The notes under the pieces are model-generated. The model was not told the origin of the DNA and did not search any database. It was given only the letters and a program-made list of their open reading frames with translations. Both the position numbers and the translations under genes were made by a program. 64,000 nucleotides of DNA from the IMG/VR virus record IMGVR_UViG_3300050122_000027; one strand, written 5' to 3'. The stretch comes from a virus. This document shows positions 8,539 through 61,553 of this stretch, in pieces (the first letter of the stretch is position 1; each line of letters begins with the position of its first letter).

Positions 8539-8990
8539 TGTCGGTCTCGTAGATTGTGACAAGCGAACTGAGCGTATCAACATACAACTGCTCTAGTGGT
8601 TCAAGATCACCTTTAAGCAATTGTACAACGAGTTTGTTTGCGATTGTTGCTTGAGTCTGATTCTCGATTGGCATAAGCGGACAGGCATCGATGCACTGTG
8701 TCCACGTCATGTTGTTTTGCTCTTTGAAATCAAGGCTCTCTGAACTCTGAAAATAACATATCGACCCGCATAGCACATAGGCTCGCATATGTGTCATTAC
8801 TTGGAACACAATCAATATATGTTCTCACGTAATCCCAAACTTCACTGCGAGTAACAGGCATCATTTCACCATTGCTCTTGGCAACTTGTAACACTTGGAT
8901 CAGGATGTTACGATCAATATGTCTCCTGATCTCGATTGTGAAAAGCCCGTCTTCAAGAACCGGATCTTTTTTGTGTCGTGGCATGTTGTG

Positions 8991-10163
8991 TTAGGGGAGT
9001 TGGAACTTATAATGATCTGCGATCAGTTGAGCAATATCGCTACCCTTCATATTCGAGACTGTATCAACGATTTGATAATCAATATTGGCAGCTTGAATTG
9101 CGGGAGCAATAACATTGTAATTATCTTGTTGTGATTGGCTAGTTTTACCACTGTTGTAGTCTTGTATTTGTTGGTTTGTTTCATACCAACTTTCATCAGC
9201 CGTCCAAAGTCCTGGACCACCACTACCATCTCTAGGTGGTGGTGAAATATCATCGTCATATGTTCCTTGAACATATCCTCCGATGCCTGGAACGTTGAAT
9301 TGTAAGTCTGGCATGTAGATACGAACGCTGTATCCTTTCATGCTTGGAGCAATCGTCGGCAAATTCGCTGTGAAATAACTTGGATAAAGATATGGTGCTG
9401 GTGAATATCCGGCAATAATATGTAGAAAATCCGTTCCATAAAATGTGCTTTGTGGTGGTACAAGCAATCCTGAGAATCCGTAAGTATTATAATAGTCCGA
9501 TCGGAACACCGCTGTATACGCTGGATCTAGTGAATATGGATCTGTTTGACTAAACGGTGAGCAAATATCAACGAATGTAATTCCGGCTCTTGCTGATTCT
9601 ATAATCTGTTTAGCTTCATTGAAGGCATCCAACATGCCTGTGAATTCATCTGTATATGGATTGTCAATCACCCATAGTTGGTCGAATTCTCTTGATCCAT
9701 TATTGTAAAATACACCGTAAGTTGGACCATTTCCGACTTGCGGTGGTATATAATCATAATTATATGAATGTGAATTGAGAATCGATGTTGACGGCGGATC
9801 TTTTGGCCCGAGAACAATACCAAAAGAAGTCCAATCCTCTGTAATAGTTTCAGATGCAGGAAGACTATTTGCTCCAGGATACACGAAACTATATTCTGTA
9901 TATTCTTGATGATATACAATACTATATCCGTACATCACCCAATCGGTTCTTGGATATCCGCTTGGCAAAGCAGTAAGATAAACAACTTGCGGAGCCCGAG
10001 CTGCAAGTGTACCTATTGCTGGCCAACGATTCGGAGCAACATATGGGGTAATACTGGTCGCATAATATGTAGGTTGACCGAGAGTGAGACCTTGTCCTGG
10101 AGCAATATATGAAATCCTATTTCCGTTTAGAAATTTTCTGCGATCATAAATCAAACCGCTCAT
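8991..10163 (-). CDS. hypothetical Tyr/Pro/Thr-rich protein
   Basis: 390 aa ORF coupled to the upstream gene; no family recognised. Confidence 0.6.
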   Translation of the reverse strand: MSGLIYDRRKFLNGNRISYIAPGQGLTLGQPTYYATSITPYVAPNRWPAIGTLAARAPQVVYLTALPSGYPRTDWVMYGYSIVYHQEYTEYSFVYPGANSLPASETITEDWTSFGIVLGPKDPPSTSILNSHSYNYDYIPPQVGNGPTYGVFYNNGSREFDQLWVIDNPYTDEFTGMLDAFNEAKQIIESARAGITFVDICSPFSQTDPYSLDPAYTAVFRSDYYNTYGFSGLLVPPQSTFYGTDFLHIIAGYSPAPYLYPSYFTANLPTIAPSMKGYSVRIYMPDLQFNVPGIGGYVQGTYDDDISPPPRDGSGGPGLWTADESWYETNQQIQDYNSGKTSQSQQDNYNVIAPAIQAANIDYQIVDTVSNMKGSDIAQLIADHYKFQLP

Positions 10164-10624
10164 TGTGTTTTCTCAAATGTTAGTGTAAGAACCAATTCAT
10201 CTTCTTGGAATAGATCCATGTATACATTCAAATACTTTCCATCCGTCTGCAAGATCAATAGTGTAATAGCATTTGTCGTATCGCAACTAATAATACTACC
10301 ACCACGAGCTAATGCTGGTCTTGCAAGATCCGCTGCTAGTGTAGGATTCCTATTGAATTGCAAATGGATCTTGCAATCAGTTTTCTGGCCGTGGTACATT
10401 GATTCTACCTATAATATGATCACTTCCATTCCATGTTTCGATCTTTGTCATCGAACTGTTGTTTCAGTTCGGCATGTCGGGCGTCGCCGTCTTTGGGCTC
10501 AAGGCCACAACCTTTTCGCCAAACTTGATAATCGATTAAGGCTTGGTGTGCCTCTTCACGATTGTTTGCTTCGAGATGTTGCTTGGCGAGAGCAAGAGCT
10601 GTTTCAGGGTCCACGTATTTATCC

Positions 10625-11032
10625 TCAAGTGTTGAGTAATGTAATTTCTTTGACCCACGAGGCACGAAGATCACTTTCTTCAGGAGTAAGAGGATAACTC
10701 CACTTGTGCTCAAGAAATCTAAGCAGAATATCGCATTGCTGTTGTTTGCCAATAAGATGTGGACGAATTGCTTTCAAAAATCCATGAATATCTTTGGCAT
10801 GAACTCGCCAAATGTAATTTCTTTTTCTTCCTGCTATCTTAGTACCTTCTCCAACATTACCGATTCCTGTCACTTTGAGTAAATGCATTAGAATAAGTAA
10901 ATTAGTATTTGAAACCTGTACTACAGGTCGGATACTTAACCCATGCCAATATTTCTTTCGTGATTCTGCAAGTGTAAGTGTACCTTCGCCATCAATCATT
11001 GCCGCTAGATAACCTAAATCAATATCTCGCAT
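10625..11032 (-). CDS. single-motif LAGLIDADG endonuclease
   Basis: LGYLAAMIDGEGTL...VQVSNTN...LIGKQQQ. Confidence 0.85.
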   Translation of the reverse strand: MRDIDLGYLAAMIDGEGTLTLAESRKKYWHGLSIRPVVQVSNTNLLILMHLLKVTGIGNVGEGTKIAGRKRNYIWRVHAKDIHGFLKAIRPHLIGKQQQCDILLRFLEHKWSYPLTPEESDLRASWVKEITLLNT

Positions 11033-11055
11033 ATGATTATTGCAATCTAATATGT

Positions 11056-11071
11056 GGGGCATCCGTGCCCC
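11056..11071 (-). promoter_or_regulatory. CsrA-type GGA hairpin
   Basis: GGGGCA-CGGA-TGCCCC upstream of the LAGLIDADG gene. Confidence 0.55.
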
Positions 11072-11078
11072 GGCTCGT

Positions 11079-11951
11079 TTAGTTCACGTAGCCATTGTAA
11101 ATCAGGAGATTGTCGGAAGCCCATCCGACTCCTGATTTGAGAACGTTGAATTCCTTTCCAACATTGTTGTCGAGGAAGGCCACTGTATCATTCTGGATCA
11201 GGTTTTCCATCTGTGTCGCCTTGCTTGTGCCGGCGAAGTTGCCTGTCACGGTGCCGCTGCCACCGTAGTATGTCGGAATCGTAACAGGCAATGCTTGAGT
11301 CTGCAAGATCGAAGTTGCCGAAGTCATGGCTTCGGGTGAATAAACAAATGCCGTTGCCACCTGTTGGACAGACATGGCATTGGTGTTGATCTCGTTGACC
11401 CAGAAGGCCAACCCACCGGCATCAGGTGCTCGTCCGAGCACGTTCTCATAGAGCGATGTGACGAATTGTGTTTGATTGGCGTTGGCTGTGCCGGTGTTGT
11501 CTTGAATGTATTCATTGCTTGTGACAATCACGTTCACCATCTGCTGAAGTGTCGTGCCTGTCTCCAAGGCTTGAACGTCGTAGTATATACCTACTGGATC
11601 GGGTTCTCTGCCCAATAATATCTCATACAGATTGGTAACGGCAGTTGTCGCTTGTGTGGTGGTTGGTGTCGTCGTGCCCTTTTGGAATGCCGCCACGTCC
11701 TTCTCCAGAATGGGAAGGAGCTGGCTTTCGCCAAGCGGAATATGAGTAACATATCCTGCGAGAGCCGCATCGGTTGGGTTGGCCGCAATGGTGGGAACTT
11801 GGGCGTTGATCTGATGAAAGCTGTTGGATGTGAAGTTGAGTTGTGGCGATGTGCTCGGATAACGTGGGATGTTGAGATTCACGACGTAGCCTGACATCAG
11901 GCTACGATCTTCGAGCATCTCGATTGAGCCAATCTGTCTACGATTCTTCAT
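11079..11951 (-). CDS. DUF4214 surface protein with planctomycete-type export leader
   Basis: MKNRRQ...IEMLEDRSLMSG leader; two LYE.(L/V)LGR.PD..G repeats. Confidence 0.8.
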   Translation of the reverse strand: MKNRRQIGSIEMLEDRSLMSGYVVNLNIPRYPSTSPQLNFTSNSFHQINAQVPTIAANPTDAALAGYVTHIPLGESQLLPILEKDVAAFQKGTTTPTTTQATTAVTNLYEILLGREPDPVGIYYDVQALETGTTLQQMVNVIVTSNEYIQDNTGTANANQTQFVTSLYENVLGRAPDAGGLAFWVNEINTNAMSVQQVATAFVYSPEAMTSATSILQTQALPVTIPTYYGGSGTVTGNFAGTSKATQMENLIQNDTVAFLDNNVGKEFNVLKSGVGWASDNLLIYNGYVN

Positions 11952-22858: not shown

Positions 22859-22926
22859 ATGTTAAGTGTGGAATCGAACCACAATCGCTAGGGTTCCCTA
22901 GTGCTCGACCGTTGAGCTACTTAACA
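22859..22926 (-). ncRNA. tRNA-like RNA with anticodon deleted
   Basis: TGTTAAG/CTTAACA acceptor; canonical D- and T-arms; anticodon stem CTAGG/CCTAG closes only GAAC. Confidence 0.75.
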
Positions 22927-58833: not shown

Positions 58834-59370
58834 TTATATGAATACGAGAGTTCCGTCTGCTAAGCCTTGCTTCGACCACTTGCTCCAGACATCTTTCAAA
58901 TGCTGTTCGGTAGCAAGTCTAAAATAAATGAGATTGAAGAAAATTCGTAACTCATAAGATGTATGTTCTTGACAAATCTCCACAATAATATTCTTCCACA
59001 CTCTCAGATTGGCCGTTGCAATAAATACGGTGTCACTGTTGCAATCGATCAATAAGTCCGTTCCAAGTTTCAAGATTTCAATAAGCAAGGCTGGTTTGAC
59101 TTCACAAAGAAACGTAAGTGTAATATGCTGTAGGATGTGTTCCGCATGTTGAATCGCAACGTGTGCATCGCTACCAGGATGTCGAAATGCCGCCAAGGTT
59201 GGAATGAGTGATAGTAATGATCCCGCCTTGATTCCTGCATTGTCGCAACCGCGTGTCGGAGATACACCAGTAATAATGTGTGTATCATTGACGAAATTGT
59301 GCCAATCAAACTGCGGCACGCTAATTAATCTAACGTGCATTCCTTTTACGTACTTTTGTATTTGGCTCAT
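58834..59370 (-). CDS. possible degenerate ThyX-like protein
   Basis: V.LIS N-terminus and H..HILQHITLTF resemble the ThyX H.S..EH...TF region; lacks RHR. Confidence 0.3.
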   Translation of the reverse strand: MSQIQKYVKGMHVRLISVPQFDWHNFVNDTHIITGVSPTRGCDNAGIKAGSLLSLIPTLAAFRHPGSDAHVAIQHAEHILQHITLTFLCEVKPALLIEILKLGTDLLIDCNSDTVFIATANLRVWKNIIVEICQEHTSYELRIFFNLIYFRLATEQHLKDVWSKWSKQGLADGTLVFI

Positions 59371-59898
59371 CTAACGTTGATCCTACAGGATACTCACCGA
59401 GCAATATGAGACTATTGAGTCTCGCTTGAGCATCCACATGCTTGAAGCAACTCATTTGATTTGGAAAAGCTTTACCTTTGTAATAGACGTAATGCTTTTT
59501 GTTTTCAAACCCAAAAAATGCAACGACCGCATCTCGTTCTGGAGATGGAGCCATTGCATCAATTGATTCATTGAGTGTAACCATATAATACTTGAGTTTC
59601 AGTTCCCCGAACCCAAGTTGCCTTGCTTTTGAGAGGTTGATTGGAATAAGACTTTTGGCTTTGGTTTTAACCTTGGTTTCCTCGGGGCTTCTGTTACCGG
59701 AGGATAAGATCCTGGTTGCGACAATCGATAAAGATCAGCTTTGACTTTTGGTTTGTTCATCTTTGCTCTGGTAGATAAATGATAACCCCGAGCTGGGATA
59801 AATCCCCATGTATTGCTTTGTACAAGCAATATCACTGCTCCACTCGGGGGTAACTTTCCAACGTATACGATTGAAAATTACGCCAGGACAATGGCGTC

Positions 59899-60095
59899 TT
59901 GTTATGAATCGCGGAGACCCAACGTCCGCGTCCATTTCTCAATGTGGATTACTGGCTTCTGGTTCCAAGCATCCACAATCGAGAGAACAATAGTTGCTCT
60001 TGCGAATCAACTATCTTGTATGTGTGTTACTTCGATTACTCGAAGCGCTACACAAAACAACTTCCGAGTAGCCAGACACTACTCATCCATAACAA
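59899..60095 (-). ncRNA. multi-branch RNA domain
   Basis: 11 bp closing stem TTGTTATGGAT/ATTCATAACAA; GTAA and GCAA tetraloop hairpins inside. Confidence 0.6.
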
Positions 60096-60098
60096 GAG

Positions 60099-60166
60099 CC
60101 CTACACCTAGGATTCGAACCTAGCCGATTAACGTCGCGAAACATTAATCGTTTCCTGAAGAGTAGG
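60099..60166 (-). ncRNA. tRNA-like RNA with no D-arm and a long hairpin in place of the anticodon arm
   Basis: CCTACTC/GTGTAGG; CTAGG-TTCGAAT-CCTAG; CGATTAA...TTAATCG. Confidence 0.55.
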
Positions 60167-60170
60167 TAAA

Positions 60171-60241
60171 TCCTGATTGAGTATTTGCTTCTAAGAAGCA
60201 AATAACGAACCATCTTACAAGGACGACTCTCCCAACCAGGA
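60171..60241 (-). ncRNA. three-way-junction RNA domain
   Basis: TCCTGGTTGGG/CTCAATCAGGA; TATTTGCTTC-TTA-GAAGCAAATA. Confidence 0.5.
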
Positions 60242-60242
60242 G

Positions 60243-60444
60243 CGGGCAGAGATGGAATCGAACCACCGACCACAGAAACATTGATTGGTAGAATGAAGCG
60301 GTGGGATTTGAACCCACGATCAGCGTGAGTTTTGCCAACCAGACTGGCACTCACGAGCTTTTGTCATGGTTCACCGTTGAGCCGCTACGGCACGCTAATT
60401 CTTACAATGATGTTTCTGTTGCTCTACCATTGAGCTATCCACCC
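60243..60444 (-). ncRNA. tRNA scaffold with a 128 nt insert containing a second tRNA-like fold
   Basis: GGGTGGA/TCTGCCC; TAGCTCAATGGTAGAGC; GGTGG-TTCGATT-CCATC; anticodon stem extended to ACAGAAACAT/ATGTTTCTGT; inner GTGGG-TTCAAAT-CCCAC. Confidence 0.75.
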
Positions 60445-60450
60445 AAATAT

Positions 60451-60830
60451 GCCGATTGAGCAAGCCGAAGCTTCTTGAAATTTGTACAAGGTGTTCTGCC
60501 GAAGCAGTTCAGCAATGTTCAAGATTCCAAGTAATCTCTCAATCAGCCGTTTGACCTTGCGACCAAACGTCGCTACCGTCGATTCAACGATAACGATAAT
60601 CAATTGGCATCCCGCACACCACAATCGGGATTAGTCTTGCACCGGCTTTACATGGTAACATATATGAGTTACCTCATATACGCTTAGCCGATTCAGATTT
60701 CAGTGATCCGATCGTAAGATCGAATACTGGAATCCTATGCCTTCCCAACTGATATCAAGTGGTAAGAAGCAACAGCTCATTTATTGAGCCAATCCTCCGA
60801 AGAGGGTTCGCCAAAACTACTTCCCACCAT
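60451..60830 (-). ncRNA. structured RNA domains with UUCG/GNRA tetraloops
   Basis: GCTGATTGAG/CTCAATCGGC; CTGC-TTCG-GCAG; AAGC-TTCG-GCTT; CCTC-TTCG-GAGG; TATATGAG-GTAA-CTCATATA; 13 bp TGGTGGGAAGTAG/TTGCTTCTTACCA. Confidence 0.6.
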
Positions 60831-60831
60831 C

Positions 60832-60929
60832 AGGGATCGCTGGAATTGAACCAGTCTTTCGTCCTTGGAAAATAGATCCTCAGAGAGGCTAATTCCAAGT
60901 TCGACGTGCAGCCGTTACACCGCAATCCC
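60832..60929 (-). ncRNA. tRNA scaffold with extended anticodon arm
   Basis: GGGATTG/CGATCCC; CTGG-TTCAATT-CCAG; CTTGGAA/TTCCAAG capped by CCTC-TCT-GAGG. Confidence 0.6.
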
Positions 60930-60932
60930 AAA

Positions 60933-61045
60933 GGCCCAGCCAGGTTACGAGCCTGATGTGTCACTAATGATTGTATTGAGTCTACGTCTCGTAAACACAG
61001 ACTGTGCAATCATTCCGACACCGCTAGGCCATGTAAGGGCCGGGC
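60933..61045 (-). ncRNA. divergent tRNA-like scaffold with extended anticodon arm
   Basis: GCCCGGC/GCTGGGC; CAGG-CTCGTAA-CCTG; AATGATTG/CAATCATT; AGTCTG/TAGACT. Confidence 0.45.
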
Positions 61046-61286
61046 ATAATAAGATTTACCGAATATTCTCGCATCGTAAGATGGGAGACATCCGACAGTG
61101 ATCTACAAAGTGTTCCGGCCCCGCACACCGTTGAACGTTTCCGTAACGGGTACTAGTGATTACCGAAGGCCGATTTGGCAATCACCTTCCGACTTCACAA
61201 CGACTTGGCCCGTTGCTGTCATCGGAATCCACACGCCACCGATCAAGATGACGTGCAGCCGGTTCGGTCACTAAGACCGTTCCAAA

Positions 61287-61553
61287 TTACGAAGGTGGAA
61301 CCTGCTTGGACGGTTGAGCCGGATAGCCCATCGGCATTTGCTGGCCGGATGGCATCGGAGCTTGTCCGACCGGGCCGGTGTACGAGTACGTCAACGTCTC
61401 ATACCCACTGCAAGGAGCCATTTGCATCTGACCCTTGCAAGCCTGCTTGGCTGCTCTCTTGGCGGCTTTCGCAGCCTTGTGGCACTTGCCAGCCTCAGCC
61501 GGAAGTGACATCGCAATCAAGGCCACGAAAGCAAGTAGCATCCGAATCATCAG
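61287..61553 (-). CDS. small exported protein
   Basis: MIRMLLAFVALIAMSLPAEA signal peptide; ATGA overlap with the upstream gene. Confidence 0.6.
   Translation of the reverse strand: MMIRMLLAFVALIAMSLPAEAGKCHKAAKAAKRAAKQACKGQMQMAPCSGYETLTYSYTGPVGQAPMPSGQQMPMGYPAQPSKQVPPS

Follow-up and report, generated by a model that had tools for sequence, protein, structure and literature searches.

The DNA analyzed here is a stretch of 64,000 nucleotides (referred to as the window), which represents most of the genome of a phage that has been assembled elsewhere as contigs of 110–112 kb. Its source environment is peat, since the public runs that contain the same phage are peat metagenomes, and other copies of the locus were found in the same phage only, with 99.95–100% identity. 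Most of the window genes are carried on the minus strand, and they include those for a family A DNA polymerase, an SNF2-type helicase, a class II ribonucleotide reductase, ParB-like proteins, a UvrD helicase, and an ATP-dependent ligase, together with at least 13 HNH endonuclease genes. HNH_3 genes, some of them with an AP2 domain, are spread among many genes across the replication module (window 7178–51148), and a LAGLIDADG-like gene adjoins the SNF2 gene; the load of homing-type endonucleases is unusually heavy. No close relative of the phage is present among the GenBank phages, for which the DNA polymerase finds only distant relatives at 23% identity. More distant relatives of the phage are integrated in Planctomycetota genomes, which suggests that this phage clade infects Planctomycetota.

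Among the small genes upstream of the SNF2 gene lies a non-coding island of 1.3–1.7 kb, which has no DNA match in the GenBank phages and within which the 202-nt gene described in this report is located. The gap left without genes by the gene caller spans 59584–61287, in window coordinates read from locus L004. A sigma-70 scan returned no promoter-like site; promoters of a different type may serve this phage. The segment 59805–60084, immediately downstream of the island's tRNA-like modules and still upstream of the first small gene, is matched at 97–100% identity by RNA contigs of two metatranscriptome studies, one of permafrost and one of soil, and these contigs have four base differences in common (59869, 59874, 59906, and 59907). 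This segment, for which Rfam gave no match, may correspond to a structured RNA of high abundance or to a leader. The RNA contigs do not extend over the 202-nt gene, and RNA runs were not listed for 60230–60460 either, neither of which speaks for or against its expression.

The Outer tRNA Body

The gene itself is a complete tRNA body of 202 nt that reads from 60444 to 60243 on the minus strand (Table 1). A first-pass annotation of this DNA had described textbook acceptor, D, variable, and T elements and an anticodon stem that continues as a perfect 10-bp helix. It made no mention of the strand; all of these elements are present on the minus strand, at coordinates that were borne out. Pair probabilities of the 10-bp helix range from 0.87 to 1.0, and the fold of the whole 202 nt has a z score of −3.7 against 200 shuffles.

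Table 1. Window coordinates of the parts of the 202-nt gene and of other tRNA-like elements of the phage.
Feature	Position	Strand	Remarks
Outer acceptor, 5′ strand GGGUGGA	60438..60444	−	pairs 7/7 with 60244–60250, two G-U
Outer U8 A9	between acceptor and D arm	−	sequence read
Outer D arm, 4-bp stem, 7-nt loop with GG	60421..60435	−	
Outer anticodon stem of 5 bp plus 5-bp extension, 5′ strand	60410..60419	−	perfect 10 bp with 60272–60281
128-nt insert, tRNA-Ser-derived domain plus connector helices	60282..60409	−	
Inner acceptor-like helix, 5′ strand AGAAU-U-AGCG	60393..60402	−	last 4 nt equal tRNA-Ser positions 4–7
Inner D arm, CCGU / 9-nt loop with A14, G18, G19, A21 / ACGG	60374..60390	−	
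Inner anticodon-arm slot, 17 nt	60356..60372	−	from position-by-position alignment with tRNA-Ser
Enlarged variable arm, 32-nt hairpin CGUGAGU/ACUCACG	60324..60355	−	at the site of the long variable arm of tRNA-Ser
Inner T arm GUGGG-UUCAAAU-CCCAC	60301..60317	−	exact match to tRNA-Ser T arm
Inner acceptor-like helix, 3′ strand CGCU-UC-AUUCU, then ACCA	60286..60300	−	first 6 nt equal tRNA-Ser 66–71
Outer anticodon stem plus extension, 3′ strand	60272..60281	−	pairs with 60410–60419
Outer variable loop GGUC, 4 nt	60268–60271	−	
Outer T arm GGUGG-UUCGAUU-CCAUC	60251..60267	−	
Outer acceptor, 3′ strand, and discriminator G at 60243	60243..60250	−	no CCA encoded
Second tRNA-like fold in the same island	60832–60929	−	8-bp terminal stem, D arm, weak T arm
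tRNA-like 3′ module	60095–60170	−	11-bp hairpin, T arm CUAGG-UUCGAAU-CCUAG, 5-bp terminal helix, no D arm
Otherwise canonical tRNA with 5-bp anticodon stem and 4-nt loop	22859–22926	−	ARAGORN 'tRNA-???', 2-base anticodon

In a strict shape scan, which called for 7/7 acceptor pairs, a 4-bp D stem with a GG loop, a 5-bp T stem, and a TTCRA loop at any spacing between the D and T arms, the outer element was recovered together with ordinary tRNAs from about 0.9 Mb of loci, and shuffled copies of these loci yielded none. The spacing between the D and T arms is 153 nt in the outer element as against 22–23 nt in a normal tRNA. Its 21-nt 5′ half is common to many class I tRNAs, and when metagenomes were scanned with it, the matches were YrlA-like modules and unrelated tRNAs of class I (Lys, Ile, Met, His, and others), so that no amino-acid identity can be assigned to the outer tRNA. 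Exact-pattern scans of viral contigs with the 5′ junction, the 3′ half, and the combination of tRNA-Ser with the outer T loop gave no matches, and neither did a scan of genome contigs with the 3′ half.

Standard tools pass over this locus. ARAGORN with default settings called nothing, and Rfam at its gathering thresholds likewise gave nothing; the tRNA family RF00005, with a gathering threshold of 29 bits, had no match at 60243–60444 even when E values up to 10 were admitted. At that setting only chance fragments appeared at the locus, namely a tmRNA T arm, an antisense plastid UTR, and a Tymovirus tRNA-like element. Of the attributes of a decoding tRNA, the outer RNA thus has the 7-bp acceptor, the D arm, and the T arm, and it lacks the anticodon loop, the Rfam score, and the default ARAGORN call. 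As standard tRNA finders and Rfam miss the gene, genes of this kind are probably under-counted in viral genomes.

A Serine-tRNA-Derived Fold in Place of the Anticodon Loop

The first-pass annotation had credited the 128-nt insert with its own T arm, an acceptor-like helix, and a CGTGAGT/ACTCACG arm, all of which are found on the minus strand. Its description of the locus as a tRNA inside a tRNA holds in the literal sense, and a derivative of tRNA-Ser can be recognized in the inner fold, with 23/23 and 20/23 identities in the segments discussed below. What it had not seen is that the anticodon stem of the inner tRNA is lost and that half of its ACCA is taken up by a connector helix.

The inner acceptor-like helix, formed by 60393–60402 with 60290–60300, consists of 5 + 4 bp around a 1×2 internal loop with pair probabilities of 0.83–1.0, and both of its strands are 3 nt longer than those of tRNA-Ser, in complementary fashion. 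Directly after this helix comes the ACCA, the final CA of which is paired in the AUUG/CAAU connector, a 4-bp helix through which the inner acceptor helix stacks on the outer 10-bp stem. The anticodon slot has kept its length and lost all Watson–Crick pairs of its stem, one G-U pair being possible. The hairpin in the place of the variable arm is built from 7 bp, a 3-nt bulge, another 4–5 bp, and a loop, with probabilities of 0.98–1.0 for its inner pairs.

In the nearest-neighbor model, probabilities close to 1 are assigned to the outer helices, the connector, the inner acceptor-like helix, and the long hairpin alike. For the inner D and T arms, the ensemble probability is only about 0.10 in this model, which is devoid of D-loop/T-loop tertiary contacts. 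This low value is due to the segment GGUGAACCAUGA (60376–60365), which runs from the 3′ end of the inner D stem into the first part of the anticodon slot and can pair with the inner T arm; a structure that retains the inner T arm lies about 1 kcal/mol above the minimum free energy.

The ancestry of the insert can be read from two of its segments. The inner T arm together with the next six bases (23 nt) has exact matches at 120 or more bacterial genome loci, and ARAGORN called a tRNA-Ser, with four different anticodons in all, at 114 of the 120 exact loci among the matches listed. The inner 5′ segment, comprising AGCG, UG, and the D arm, is identical at 20 of 23 positions to the tRNA-Ser(UGA) type of Actinomycetota. 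Compared with tRNA-Ser, the T arm and its four adjacent acceptor pairs are unchanged, and the D arm nearly so. A covariance model trained on 24 tRNA-Ser genes, themselves selected through the 23-mer, found a single match in the 64-kb window, which covers the model at full length (60399–60289; 36.4 bits, E about 4e-7). Since this model is not specific for serine, scoring tRNA-Leu higher and class I tRNAs similarly, its match supports a tRNA-like fold only. On its sequence, the insert is a tRNA-Ser by descent and not a working tRNA-Ser, having neither a free 7-bp acceptor end with CCA nor a paired anticodon stem.

Two routes of origin were considered. Capture from a Planctomycetota host found no support in that the tRNA-Ser genes of three genomes with related prophages do not match the inner 23-mer within two mismatches, and an integration scar that duplicated the 3′ half of a tRNA does not fit the inner and outer 3′ halves, which are unrelated. 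No homolog of the insert was present in about 1 Mb of related loci, and an 18-nt motif of the D arm matched genomes within coding sequence only.

Related Islands and Non-Decoding tRNA Bodies

Proteins with about 50–55% identity to the SNF2 helicase of the phage are common. The nearest homolog is 55% identical, and the island that accompanies it does not align with the one described here; in the three best long contigs, a non-coding gap is found at the equivalent position with a sequence that cannot be aligned. In a set of 80 viral contigs from the clade, the gap often contains a single ordinary tRNA, with many tRNA identities represented, and the tRNA content of the island varies widely among relatives. 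SNF2-gene relatives were also seen on large Planctomycetota genome contigs of the Pirellulales, Thermoguttaceae, and Planctomycetaceae (L383–L386, L388–L393, and L395–L399), with three copies on one Thermoguttaceae chromosome and peat (SPRUCE) MAGs among the carriers.

In some of these gaps, a tRNA body is kept and its anticodon arm is altered. The gap of L005 contains a tRNA body with a 6-nt anticodon loop, that of L011 one with a 3-bp anticodon stub, and that of L077 one with an 8-bp stem capped by a tetraloop. L003, the closest relative, has a tRNA body with an insert of about 70 nt, which is different, shorter, and without a T arm. Because the counterpart in L003 is different and has no T arm, the tRNA-Ser cargo is not conserved, and it appears so far to be unique to this phage.

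Within the phage itself, two further tRNA bodies of this kind lie at 22859–22926 and 60832–60929, and a tRNA-like 3′ module lies at 60095–60170 (Table 1). In the fold at 60832–60929, a 7-bp stem and an inner hairpin lengthen the anticodon arm, and its score against the Rfam tRNA model is 24 bits (threshold 29), with an E value of 0.047. Tidy tRNA bodies that are predicted not to decode recur in this phage group, and the maintenance of the island in relatives, with anticodon arms that are capped, shortened, or expanded, suggests that such bodies have been repeatedly retained. A separate tRNA-like RNA lies in the island of another relative (L124:2781-2862), with a 7-bp acceptor stem and a canonical T arm, a 7-bp hairpin replacing the D arm, and no anticodon arm.

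An undescribed phage class of tRNA-shaped RNAs with a structured insert may be characterized by intact acceptor, D, and T arms, a folded insert in place of the anticodon loop, tRNA genes as neighbors, and absence from Rfam, and the 202-nt gene has each of these features. tRNA-shaped RNAs with a structured insert are also present in L003, L343, L261, and L316.

Nested tRNAs in Unrelated Contigs

Viral contigs were scanned for two T-loop motifs 25–55 nt apart, which gave at least 118 loci, and these were filtered for nesting by requiring that the outer tRNA be intact in its acceptor, D arm, anticodon stem, and T arm. Apart from the window, the matches listed included two unrelated contigs, L287 and L338, in which the inner tRNA is complete. 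In L287 (4995–5145), a tRNA-Ile(GAU)-like gene with an encoded ACCA is situated between the two strands of the outer anticodon stem. The outer tRNA is paralogous to the inner one, with the same D and T arm sequences, and would be left with a 10-nt loop upon removal of the latter. In L338 (4972–5121), a tRNA-Phe(GAA) is placed inside the anticodon loop of a GCCA-bearing tRNA, which itself stands in register within an array of 12 tRNAs. Removal of the 76-nt inner unit from L338 gives an outer loop CUUCUAA with the anticodon UCU for arginine, a restoration that is only suggestive, as some acceptable loop would arise in about two-thirds of random cases.

The neighborhood of the nested tRNA of L338 contains, at a distance of 3.7–6.3 kb, genes for an RlaP-like protein (8805–9575) and an AAA_33 plus HD protein of the kinase/HD healing type (10568–11467), and two PD-(D/E)XK endonuclease genes lie close by. 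A search of the retrieved parts of L338 and L287 gave no RNA ligase domain, and no copy of either nested arrangement occurs in the GenBank phages. Searches of the literature, the coverage of which is incomplete, returned neither nested tRNA genes nor phage tRNA decoys without an anticodon, and nested tRNA genes of such kind seem to be undescribed.

These arrangements raise the question of whether tRNA end-processing combined with RNA repair enzymes could serve as a splicing pathway in bacteria. The nested phage tRNAs would then amount to a "tRNA as intron", in which end-processing excises the inner tRNA or tRNA-like RNA and the outer halves, kept together by the extended stem, are resealed by an RNA repair ligase or function as a split molecule, so that one transcript would yield two RNAs, with the window gene being a non-decoding offshoot; we regard this as a long shot.

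A Proposed Non-Decoding Composite RNA

With no usable anticodon in either, neither the outer nor the inner tRNA is predicted to decode. That the 202-nt gene specifies a functional non-decoding RNA of some kind appears probable. The fuller reading preferred here, to which we give roughly even chances, is that of a composite tRNA-derived RNA built on the principle of the tRNA scaffold and displaying a look-alike of tRNA-Ser. Briefly, a class I tRNA body is kept and its anticodon loop is replaced, via the 10 + 4 bp extension, by a tRNA-Ser-derived domain that retains the shape features of tRNA-Ser, namely the D/T elbow and a long variable arm that has become enlarged. The gene would be transcribed from the minus strand together with the neighboring tRNA-like modules of the island, after which the outer ends would be trimmed by the RNase P and 3′-end enzymes of the host and CCA would be added. 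The tRNA body would stabilize the molecule, as it does in the laboratory scaffold.

As a tRNA-Ser look-alike that can presumably be neither charged nor used for decoding, the inner domain would act as a mimic or decoy for a factor recognizing the elbow and the variable arm. Candidate targets, which are conjectural, are seryl-tRNA synthetase and a tRNA-Ser-directed nucleotidyltransferase toxin of the MenT3/AbiEii type. Seryl-tRNA synthetase picks tRNA-Ser by its long variable arm. MenT3 is a member of the DUF1814 nucleotidyltransferase superfamily that also includes the abortive-infection toxin AbiEii. It likewise relies on the long variable loop to select tRNA-Ser (PMC11162799). Proteins with this selectivity exist, which makes a decoy role plausible, and it is the identifiable serine tRNA origin of the cargo that suggests these concrete binding partners; as a specific assignment, the decoy role nonetheless seems rather unlikely. 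Phage tRNA genes are now viewed mainly as tools against host defenses that cut or block tRNAs. A phage RNA with two tRNA shapes and no anticodon would point to uses of tRNA mimicry beyond decoding, such as decoys for tRNA-binding enzymes or toxins, or self-processing carriers of structured RNA.

Alternative Explanations

The gene could instead encode a nested precursor, from which the inner tRNA-like RNA is cut out by RNase P on the 5′ side and by an endo- or exonuclease on the 3′ side, beside the ACCA. This would release a tRNA-Ser-like RNA of 110–120 nt and leave the outer halves held on a 14-bp helix, to be religated or to remain split. RNase P recognizes the coaxial stack of the T arm and acceptor in its substrates, and such a stack is formed by the inner T arm and helix, with the ACCA following the latter directly. 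The inner tRNAs of L287 (with ACCA) and L338 (tRNA-Phe), which occupy the same place and are callable by ARAGORN, add to this evidence, as they look functional and would need to be released in order to act as tRNAs. However, the inner helix of the window gene has 9 bp and an internal loop in place of a 7-bp stem, the CA of its ACCA is engaged in the connector helix, and release of an inner RNA without an anticodon stem would not provide a decoding tRNA, all of which make processing of this kind improbable here.

An equally improbable explanation is that both are dead genes, a fragment of tRNA-Ser having been inserted by illegitimate recombination or endonuclease-driven repair to leave a neutral scar that is possibly still transcribed. 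The 13 or more genes for HNH-type endonucleases render double-strand breaks and gene conversion likely, and a degenerate inner anticodon stem, a nearest relative without the same insert, and an island with highly variable tRNA content are what such a history would leave behind. The decay is nevertheless not uniform: the outer helices and the inner elbow are intact, and a single arm has been erased at unchanged length. Together with the 5 + 4 bp stem extension and the complementary 3-nt lengthening of the acceptor strands, which need coordinated changes, this uneven conservation argues against plain decay, and in several relatives, tRNA bodies that do not decode are kept in tidy form, their stems capped by tetraloops.

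That the 128 nt or a part of them is a true intron, spliced out to give a decoding tRNA, is very improbable indeed. The first-pass annotation had stated that removal of the insert rebuilds no YU-NNN-RN loop and that no group I core is visible, and both statements hold. Enumeration of every single excision produced no 5-bp stem with a 7-nt loop bearing U33 and a purine at 37, a test that is weak alone, as about one-third of random cases would fail it too, and the Intron_gpI model, like other ribozyme families, had no match at E values up to 10. Known bacterial tRNA group I introns are about 200 nt or more in length, as compared with the 128 nt of the insert. The intron mode of ARAGORN, which had been named as a check, does accept the outer tRNA at default thresholds, as a tRNA-Ile(aat) with a 129-nt "intron", but the called loop UCAAUGU has a C at position 33 and is unacceptable, so that a standard anticodon-loop intron is not indicated. 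At the junction, a 4-bp helix between 1×2 and 2×2 internal loops stands in place of a 3-4-3 bulge-helix-bulge, and the relatives are prophages of bacteria, which are not known to have the tRNA splicing endonuclease.

Other classes of RNA were tried and set aside. A hammerhead ribozyme is contradicted by CUGAUC where CUGAUGA would be expected, and the 15-codon open frame of the insert, considered as a tmRNA-like tag, is within the length expected by chance. A tmRNA was not called by ARAGORN with default settings, and the permuted calls obtained at lowered thresholds are spurious.

Comparison with Known Systems

The non-decoding composite RNA proposed above can be set beside several described RNAs, the first of which is the bacterial class II tRNA-Ser (RF00005) itself. 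The insert shares with it the exact 23 nt of the T arm and 3′ acceptor strand, the G18 and G19 of the D loop, the C11:G24 pair, the 17-nt anticodon slot, and a long variable arm in place. It differs in that the anticodon stem is unpaired, the variable arm has about twice the normal length, and the acceptor, extended by 3 nt per strand and interrupted by an internal loop, has no free end and is embedded in another tRNA.

The tmRNA (RF00023) also combines a tRNA-like part without an anticodon with a large internal insert. The 202-nt gene, however, has no series of pseudoknots and no G3:U70 pair, and Rfam aligns only the 18 nt of the inner T arm with this family.

In YrlA (RF02553), a tRNA-like domain is joined through the anticodon stem, and its D-arm sequence is nearly that of the outer tRNA. 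This domain is circularly permuted with a loop-closed acceptor stem, whereas the topology of the 202-nt gene is unpermuted; no match to YrlA was obtained in 59300–61400 at E values up to 1, and no Ro/Rsr gene was seen in the window. Permuted tRNA-like modules are present in six metagenome loci (L093, L094, L099, L102, L118, and L120), in the order of T arm, loop-closed acceptor, D arm, and anticodon-stem strand; in L094, L099, L102, and L118, another T arm and one more closed helix come after the module. Those of L093, L118, and L120 score 40–46 bits against the Rfam YrlA model (threshold 69) and may be unannotated Y-RNA-like genes.

Among the natural RNAs that have been described, those that come nearest are the species 1 RNA (rnaC) and species 2 RNA (rnaD) of phage T4, two small stable RNAs from its tRNA cluster, which are likewise phage-encoded, non-decoding, and adjacent to tRNA genes. 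When fetched and folded, rnaC was found to end with a canonical T arm followed by a terminal helix, reminiscent of the RNA described here, yet the fold obtained has no canonical D arm or 7-bp acceptor stem. rnaD, in its fold, is without a T arm, neither of the two contains a second tRNA, and neither has sequence similarity to the 202-nt gene.

The design principle itself is best known from the tRNA scaffold of Ponchon and Dardel, which preserves the acceptor, D, and T arms and uses the anticodon stem-loop as an insertion site, closed by a hairpin, for a structured RNA, and chimeras made in this way undergo tRNA-like processing and are protected from nucleases (PMC3753655). That scaffold is a laboratory construct, whereas the phage design is natural and its cargo is itself derived from a tRNA. 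The nested layout of the 202-nt gene would thus represent a natural counterpart of the laboratory scaffold, and its new element is a nested tRNA cargo of identifiable origin.
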